Below, in pieces: positions 5,999 to 6,316 of a stretch of DNA of 64,000 nt. A program made the position numbers and the translations under genes. Where the stretch lies: sequence record PQ014731.1. One strand, 5' to 3'. This DNA comes from Escherichia phage VB-EcoM-WM. The notes beneath the pieces were generated by a model. The model saw only the letters and a program-made list of their open reading frames with translations. It was not told the DNA's origin and searched no databases. The stretch's first letter is position 1. Each line of letters begins with the position of its first letter.

Positions 5999-6316
5999 TC
6001 AATCCCAAAAGTCAATCTTTACTTTACCTTTTCCCTTACCTTTCTTTCCACCGCATTTAGCCAACTGGCGTGCTGCAACATCCACCATACGGTCAGTTGC
6101 CTCGTAAGCATCGCTACCTTTAGCTTTGGCGATAACTTCTTTCCCAGAATTGTCAAAAATAAAAGCCATAACCTCCTGGTGATCATTTTCAACTTTTACA
6201 CTCACACGTGCATAGTTGGCAGATGGGTGCAAACGCTCCAGTTTGGACATTTTGTGGGAAATGAAAGACACCATACCTTCAGTGATCTCTACGTTGCCAG
6301 TGATTTCAATCTGCAT
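5999..6316 (-). CDS. ribosome hibernation promoting factor / RaiA-like protein (S30AE family)
   Basis: N-terminus MQIEITGNVEITE matches the HPF/YfiA hallmark MQ[LI]NITG.NVEITE; KLE, VKVE and ARQL.K segments in matching order; ~100 aa plus Lys/Gly-rich tail. Confidence 0.6.
   Translation of the reverse strand: MQIEITGNVEITEGMVSFISHKMSKLERLHPSANYARVSVKVENDHQEVMAFIFDNSGKEVIAKAKGSDAYEATDRMVDVAARQLAKCGGKKGKGKGKVKIDFWD

Follow-up and report, generated by a model that had tools for sequence, protein, structure and literature searches.

The product of the minus-strand gene at 5999-6316 of the window (the whole 64,000-nucleotide stretch of Escherichia phage VB-EcoM-WM that was analysed, record PQ014731.1) is supported as the Vequintavirus ortholog of the bacterial short HPF (HPF/YhbH type). 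We assign a probability of about 0.6 to the reading that it works as a short HPF: produced early in infection, it would enter vacant host ribosomes and dock in their 30S decoding channel. Translation-machinery genes are rare in phages, and HPF is among the few ribosome-associated proteins of cultivated phages. The finding itself is already known, since the gene has been annotated from the rV5 deposit onward and was published and tested in 2019. What is new here is the residue-level comparison of ribosome contacts, the evidence of purifying selection, the conservation of the promoter, and the disorder and variability of the C-terminal tail. The gene and its parts are as follows.

5999..6316, minus strand: coding sequence of the HPF homolog, with ATG start, 105 codons and TGA stop (from the ORF list)
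6050..6316, minus strand: folded S30AE/HPF domain, residues 1-89 (AlphaFold2 model, Foldseek, dN/dS)
6002..6049, minus strand: Gly/Lys-rich C-terminal tail, residues 90-105, GKKGKGKGKVKIDFWD, predicted to be disordered and variable among strains
6323..6328, minus strand: Shine-Dalgarno sequence AAGGAG, 6 nt 5′ of the ATG (read from the sequence)

The sequence-only reading had placed a 105-aa ORF at 5999-6316, and both the span and the length agree with the ORF list, the strand being minus. The product is MQIEITGNVEITEGMVSFISHKMSKLERLHPSANYARVSVKVENDHQEVMAFIFDNSGKEVIAKAKGSDAYEATDRMVDVAARQLAKCGGKKGKGKGKVKIDFWD (105 aa). It starts, as had been claimed, with MQIEITGNVEITE, and the HPF/YfiA segments that had been picked out do occur in that order (KLE at residues 25-27, VKVE at 40-43, and ARQLAK at 82-87), together with the Lys/Gly-rich tail, at residues 89-100. 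The gene is phage-encoded, as proposed, the genome being that of a Vequintavirus (an rV5-like coliphage). Over the 4 kb surrounding the gene, identity to Escherichia phage vB_EcoM-FV3 is 98.4%, and this neighbourhood is matched by 120 phage records, overwhelmingly of rV5-like Vequintavirus. The coding sequence is the ortholog of rV5 ORF144/gp139 and corresponds to FV3_00136, with which the protein is 100% identical by tblastn; identity in 105 other phage records is 95-99%.

Membership in the S30AE family was examined with profiles. The protein matches PF02482 (Ribosomal_S30AE) over residues 3-88, nearly the full model, with 48.3 bits (E=1.8e-12) against a gathering score of 23.7 bits; this is the HMM search that the sequence-only reading had put forward as a check, and its outcome favours the claim. 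The NCBIfam model TIGR00741 (HPF/YfiA family) gives 45.9 bits, above its cut-off of 40.9. Among the equivalog models, that for the E. coli-type short HPF (NF007780) is the best NCBIfam match at 55.8 bits, although this lies below the cut-off of 125, and that for RaiA/YfiA (NF007654) gives 17.6 bits, below the cut-off of 158. The best PDB sequence matches are chains of E. coli HPF (2RQL, 4V8H, and 6H4N; E ~5e-12, residues 1-89), and in BLASTP the protein shares 43% identity with E. coli HPF over residues 1-87 and 25% with E. coli RaiA. By sequence, short HPF is a closer relative of the phage protein than RaiA is, although neither of the E. coli equivalog cut-offs is passed. The RefSeq name “RaiA” is best taken as generic, because the protein is closer to HPF both in identity (43% versus 25%) and in profile score (55.8 versus 17.6 bits). 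PF02482 is the sole Pfam match, and the C-terminal dimerisation domain of the long HPFs is absent, so that the protein does not belong to the long type. All S30AE positions that are at least 90% invariant are kept (T12, K22, G58, A63, D69, Y71, D75, and D79), and the family-invariant K23, D69, Y71, D75, R83, and K87 (E. coli HPF numbering) are present in both phage lineages.

The fold is consistent with these matches. An AlphaFold2 model built from a 23-sequence alignment has a pLDDT of 83.5 overall and of ~90 in the core, and the predicted topology is beta1-alpha1-beta2-beta3-beta4-alpha2 (strands at residues 2-7, 33-43, 46-55, and 60-67, and helices at 13-29 and 70-89). In a Foldseek search of the PDB with this model, the top 37 matches are all HPF, RaiA or pY (protein Y), with an rmsd of 1.0 Å to the lead match, V. 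cholerae HPF, and of 1.2 Å to E. coli HPF on the hibernating 100S ribosome; the TM-scores, normalised to target length, are 0.93 (4hei_A) and 0.89 (6h4n_x). A model made from the single sequence (pLDDT 61) was dropped, its Foldseek matches to Y-family polymerase and Cas7 being meaningless. The structure prediction that had been suggested as a further check thus gives an HPF fold when the alignment is used. Profile, predicted fold, and invariant residues place the phage protein in the S30AE/HPF-YfiA family, and the earlier identification as an HPF/RaiA homolog is upheld by these together with the pairwise identity.

Contacts between the ribosome and the HPF and YfiA proteins of Gram-negative bacteria are listed in a 2025 cryo-EM preprint (bioRxiv 10.1101/2025.10.07.680626), and we scored the contact positions in the phage clade and in 20 cellular homologs. 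According to that work, helix alpha2 presents a basic track to the 16S rRNA (positions 80, 83, 87, 89, 91, and 93), T53 and position 62 touch m2G966, H55 and E60 touch uS9, and Y30 touches A790, K26 and Q29 being listed as contacts as well; positions 80, 89, 93, and 51 are 16S contacts or part of the patch that recognizes m2G966 (bioRxiv 10.1101/2025.10.07.680626). The phage proteins keep K23, K26, D69, Y71, D75, R83, K87, and K91 and a hydrophobic residue at position 62, and they have R at position 29, as do most of the cellular homologs. The basic track of alpha2 is incomplete: three of its six positions are kept (R83, K87, and K91), and the window protein has V, G, and G in place of K80, K89, and K93. 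These replacements are shared by both phage lineages. Position 80 is V or T in them (K in 16 of the 20 cellular homologs), position 89 is G or S (basic in 17 of 20), position 93 is G (basic in 11 of 20), and the acidic position 51 has become M or S (acidic in 18 of 20). T53 is replaced by F or R in the phage clade; F at position 55 (for H) and L at position 30 (for Y) are within the range of the cellular homologs. On these kept and lost residues, the scaffold and the central contacts are intact and the C-terminal part of the binding surface has been rebuilt. Lysines of the tail (92, 94, 96, 98, and 100) may offset those lost from alpha2.

The same comparison bears on an improbable alternative, namely that the S30AE scaffold was kept and turned to another target, an RNA or a protein other than the decoding centre. 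Clade-specific replacements at conserved surface positions (E51 to M/S, K80 to V/T, K89 to G/S, M70 to A, and I74 to T), common to both lineages and maintained under purifying selection, are consistent with such a change of target. However, most of the reported rRNA-contact residues and all of the family-invariant residues are kept, some cellular HPFs show the changes at positions 30, 55, and 80 as well, and the neighbourhood, made up of small ORFs without family matches, points to no alternative partner. A negative ribosome-association result for the rV5 protein (PMC6375957) can be cited in support of the changed target, and it also has to be weighed against the preferred reading of a decoding-channel factor. 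The loss of K80, K89, K93, and the acidic position 51, and the NF007780 score below its cut-off, likewise count against that reading.

That result comes from Mizuno et al. 2019 (Nat Commun 10:752, PMC6375957), in which the FV3 and rV5 proteins are tabled among virus-encoded ribosomal proteins (Table 1; Ribosomal_S30AE/HPF). The rV5 protein was expressed from pBAD in E. coli, and its peptides, including the C-terminal VKIDFGE, were detected in crude lysate; the protein was absent from 70S and 100S ribosomes purified under high-stringency salt, and its expression brought no discernible change in 100S ribosomes (PMC6375957). The authors cautioned that the growth phase, or dissociation in the stringent salt wash, might account for the negative outcome (PMC6375957). 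The residue comparison is compatible with the second of these possibilities. Compared with host HPF, the phage protein probably binds more weakly or with greater sensitivity to salt, because K80, K89, and K93 are lost and a flexible poly-Lys tail stands in their place, and weak or salt-labile binding would reconcile the conservation of the contact residues with the negative salt-wash result. As for the 100S ribosomes, the short HPF of E. coli alone makes none without RMF (PMC6746590); given this dependence on RMF, an unchanged 100S fraction upon expression of the viral protein alone is not evidence against HPF-like binding. Literature searches found no functional work on a phage HPF later than 2019 and no infection-time expression or localisation data for one. 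The residue comparison points to concrete mutants and assay conditions by which silencing, protection, and release of host ribosomes could be told apart.

The C-terminal tail sets the phage protein apart from cellular HPF, whose basic C-terminus is helical. Helix alpha2 ends at Gly89-Gly90, the flexible tail carries lysines at 91, 92, 94, 96, 98, and 100, and residues 91-105 have a pLDDT below 50 in the alignment-based model and are predicted to be disordered. Orthologs differ in the number of GK repeats, and their tails close with FWD, FGE or FRE. In APECc02 and Murica it is truncated by a frameshift at a G/A homopolymer run, and these frameshifts may be sequencing errors. A possible, if doubtful, function for such a tail is found in a second reading, in which the protein occupies or visits the HPF/RaiA site, directs its basic tail toward the RMF site, and blocks the formation of 100S ribosomes driven by RMF and HPF. 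Ribosomes of stressed or stationary hosts would then stay open to phage mRNAs, as in the hypothesis of Mizuno et al. (PMC6375957). The 10 residues by which the protein exceeds E. coli HPF all lie in the C-terminal tail, the tail of RaiA heads toward the RMF site and RaiA counters 100S formation, and weakened alpha2 contacts would suit an easily displaced protein. Against this reading, the phage tail has no sequence similarity to that of RaiA, identity to RaiA is 25%, and the NF007654 score is 17.6 bits versus 158; in addition, the tail is the least conserved part of the protein and is truncated in some isolates, and the small 100S fraction was not visibly lowered by the rV5 protein (PMC6375957).

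The HPF core is under strong purifying selection. For codons 1-89 the median pairwise dN/dS is 0.048 and the maximum 0.146, with dS up to ~0.7, over 84 pairs from a set of 14 Vequintavirus orthologs; the set was drawn mainly from GenBank phage records, the IMG/VR scan having given only two loci. The gene was found in 118 phage records, and a 103-aa relative (P0004) that is 64% identical occupies a syntenic position in a divergent rV5-like genome of ~126-137 kb. A word-indexed protein search reached no further than the close phage family and a single relative at 64% identity. An exhaustive HMMER search gave 22 matches at E<=1e-3, a number held down by the size of the library, and among them was no cellular protein closer than ~45% identity; one of the 22 (P0006) was rejected as a repetitive false positive. 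In tblastn with E. coli HPF, the rV5-like phages hold nearly all of the HPF-like genes among sequenced phages. The GC content of the gene (43.1%) equals that of the phage (42.9%), which argues for an old resident gene rather than a recent capture.

These data leave very little room for the view that the gene is a neutral passenger, or a decaying host-derived gene without phage function. Such a view could draw on the tail frameshifts of APECc02 and Murica and on the fact that E. coli expressing the rV5 protein showed no phenotype (PMC6375957). Nevertheless, a median dN/dS of 0.048 with dS up to ~0.7 effectively refutes it, the frameshifts are confined to the tail, the gene is carried by 118 phage records and by a syntenic lineage of 64% identity, the promoter is conserved, and the base composition is fully ameliorated.

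The sequences flanking the gene contain the following features.

6364..6392, minus strand: sigma70-type promoter, TTGACA-17 nt-TATCAT, matching 11 of 12 positions in a consensus scan
6334..6356, minus strand: short stem-loop, AGAGGG/7-nt loop/CCCUCU, from RNA folding, located where the transcript is predicted to start and before the Shine-Dalgarno sequence
5888..5989, minus strand: conserved 33-aa hydrophobic ORF, MSMIKKLVPNVEIACFEIMFAIAVVVNVLGYGY, read from the sequence; FV3, rV5, and other records annotate it as hypothetical
5592..5861, minus strand: 89-aa ORF to which APCEc02, nomine, A6-1, and other records give the name “sigma 54 modulation factor”

The rV5 record marks a “Sigma70-type promoter; P144” at the place corresponding to the upstream promoter, and the context of the -35 element, AAACTGTTGACA, shows no variation across 14 orthologs, the divergent lineage L008 among them. 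The 9-mer CTGTTGACA occurs in 5 copies in the window versus 0.9 expected. A conserved, near-consensus sigma70 promoter argues for transcription by host RNA polymerase, probably early in infection. The stem-loop that follows is present, with variation in its sequence, in most orthologs and is absent in L008; its folding energy of -12.7 kcal/mol is non-significant against shuffled sequences (z = -0.9), and a regulatory role is not claimed for it.

Another match to the promoter consensus (10 of 12 positions; 6015 to 5988) falls within the 3′ end of the HPF gene, where PhagePromoter predicts a promoter in the Gotham record. This site is unlikely to serve the downstream 33-aa ORF, because its -10 element overlaps the ATG of that ORF, and it is kept as a consensus match only. 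The 33-aa ORF begins 9 nt past the HPF stop codon, with a GAGG ribosome-binding site that overlaps the stop, and is probably co-transcribed with the HPF gene. It (5888-5989) has no credible Pfam match, and at the corresponding position of the L008 locus there is an 83-nt gap, too small to hold it.

Naming of the gene in public records is uneven. Across more than 100 records it carries the labels “sigma 54 modulation factor,” “ribosome-associated translation inhibitor RaiA,” “hpf,” and “ribosome hibernation factor,” and the rV5 reference record already remarks on a likeness to the Klebsiella sigma-54 modulation protein. Five further rV5-like isolates have been recorded with hpf (PMC6969025). 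Some records wrongly call the real HPF gene “ATP-dependent protease La.” The neighbouring 89-aa ORF at 5592-5861 has no match to S30AE or to any other Pfam family, and its designation as a second sigma 54 modulation factor is rejected as an annotation slip. The slip appears to have been propagated, because APCEc02 calls the true HPF hypothetical and gives the name to its neighbour instead. Eighteen UNVERIFIED “Campylobacter phage” records (MG0656xx, for example L017, with C. jejuni as host) are 90-97% identical to the E. coli Vequintavirus analysed here and have the same HPF gene. Probably either the stated host is mistaken or the phage preparations had been contaminated.

Taken literally, the name sigma-54 modulation factor, which many GenBank records use, would make the protein a regulator of RpoN-dependent transcription, a reading to which we give hardly any credence. 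It draws on the historical family name only and on the position of E. coli hpf directly downstream of rpoN. The family is now seen as one of ribosome-binding hibernation factors, every structural match of the phage protein is a ribosome-bound HPF, RaiA or pY, and no evidence ties the phage protein to sigma-54.

Two modules of paralogous small ORFs, at 4508-5503 and 6706-7585 (minus strand), flank the HPF gene. The ORF at 4508-4903 resembles that at 6706-7116 (E=1.5e-10), the ORF at 7117-7371 resembles that at 7361-7585 (E=2.8e-15), and the ORF at 4903-5262 weakly resembles both 7117-7371 and 7361-7585. This arrangement suggests an old segmental duplication of a small-ORF block. A Pfam search of the ORFs at 4903-5262, 5240-5503, and 6706-7116 gave no match.

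Farther along the window, on the plus strand, a group I intron (46925-47149; Rfam RF00028, 92.7 bits) splits the large terminase gene. The ORF upstream of it (46192-46941) encodes the ATPase domain (Terminase_6N) and the ORF downstream (47268-48005) the nuclease domain (Terminase_6C), and in the related phage YP-6 this terminase-intron stretch holds ~700 extra bases, possibly an intron-borne insertion. A cluster of six tRNA genes at 43931-44654 (plus strand) comprises Arg-tct, Tyr-gta, Ser-tga, Thr-tgt, Met-cat, and an odd tRNA-like gene of 99 nt (44400-44498), to which ARAGORN assigns a 4-base anticodon, “atcc”; this last gene reaches only 37.5 bits with the Rfam tRNA model and is unannotated in YP-6.

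If the phage protein acts as a short-HPF-type factor, the reading preferred here, its gene would be transcribed from the conserved host-type sigma70 promoter, probably early in infection, and the product would dock between the head and the body of the 30S subunit, in the decoding channel, at the site of the A- and P-site tRNAs and the mRNA. This placement follows what is known of cellular HPF and RaiA, and K22, K25, R28, D75, R83, K87, and K91 are the contacts that the phage protein would be expected to use. Vacant host ribosomes would in this way come to be occupied by a phage protein, and the likely benefit is that, during host takeover or when the host grows slowly, the phage would preserve idle ribosomes and retain control of them.

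A more speculative proposal, which we regard as unlikely although it deserves mention, is that the protein is a remodelled derivative, a weak and reversible occupant of the hibernation site that excludes host HPF, RaiA, and RMF, or ribosome-targeting defence factors, and yields to phage mRNA and initiation factors. The loss of K80, K89, K93, and E51, the break of the helix at Gly-Gly, the poly-Lys tail, and purifying selection, seen across two lineages, could be the marks of such remodelling. If this proposal were true, a hibernation factor would have been converted into a viral anti-hibernation factor, through which the phage could use the ribosomes of stressed or stationary hosts.

Among known systems, the closest are the rV5 and FV3 genes themselves (ORF144/gp139 and FV3_00136), which have the same position, promoter, and neighbours, and whose products are 98% and 100% identical to the window protein, respectively. 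The rV5 protein ends in DFGE, whereas the window and FV3 proteins end in DFWD, and only the last two residues differ.

Of the cellular proteins, the short HPF of E. coli (YhbH; 2RQL, 6H4N, and 6Y69) is like the phage protein in consisting of a single S30AE domain without the C-terminal dimerisation domain, and the two share K23, K26, D69, Y71, D75, R83, K87, and K91. Unlike E. coli HPF, the phage protein lacks K80, K89, K93, and D51 and is 10 residues longer, the surplus lying wholly in the C-terminal tail; the basic C-terminus of the cellular HPF is helical, whereas the phage protein has a disordered and variable Gly-Lys tail. The genetic settings also differ, E. coli hpf being part of the rpoN operon and the phage gene standing under its own sigma70 promoter among small, mostly uncharacterised ORFs. 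E. coli RaiA (YfiA/protein Y) has the same fold, belongs to the same binding-site family, and likewise extends at the C-terminus beyond the length of HPF, but its tail has an acidic end (EEVEEE), to which the Gly-Lys repeat of the phage protein bears no similarity.

Proteins of the same Pfam family occur in other large myovirus genomes, those of the Cronobacter phage GAP32 and the Xanthomonas jumbo phage XaC1. The window protein matches phrog_12469 at E=4.5e-71, in contrast to 1.5e-06 for phrog_8990, which holds other phage S30AE proteins, and the GAP32 protein sits elsewhere in the tree of Mizuno et al. (PMC6375957). The separate position in the tree argues that the other phage S30AE genes are independent acquisitions. 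With the long HPFs of Firmicutes, Thermus, and others, the homology is to their N-terminal domain, as seen in PDB sequence matches (8uu4, 5njt, 6gzx, and 5nd8) and in fold matches, and the phage protein differs from them in having neither the linker nor the C-terminal dimerisation domain.
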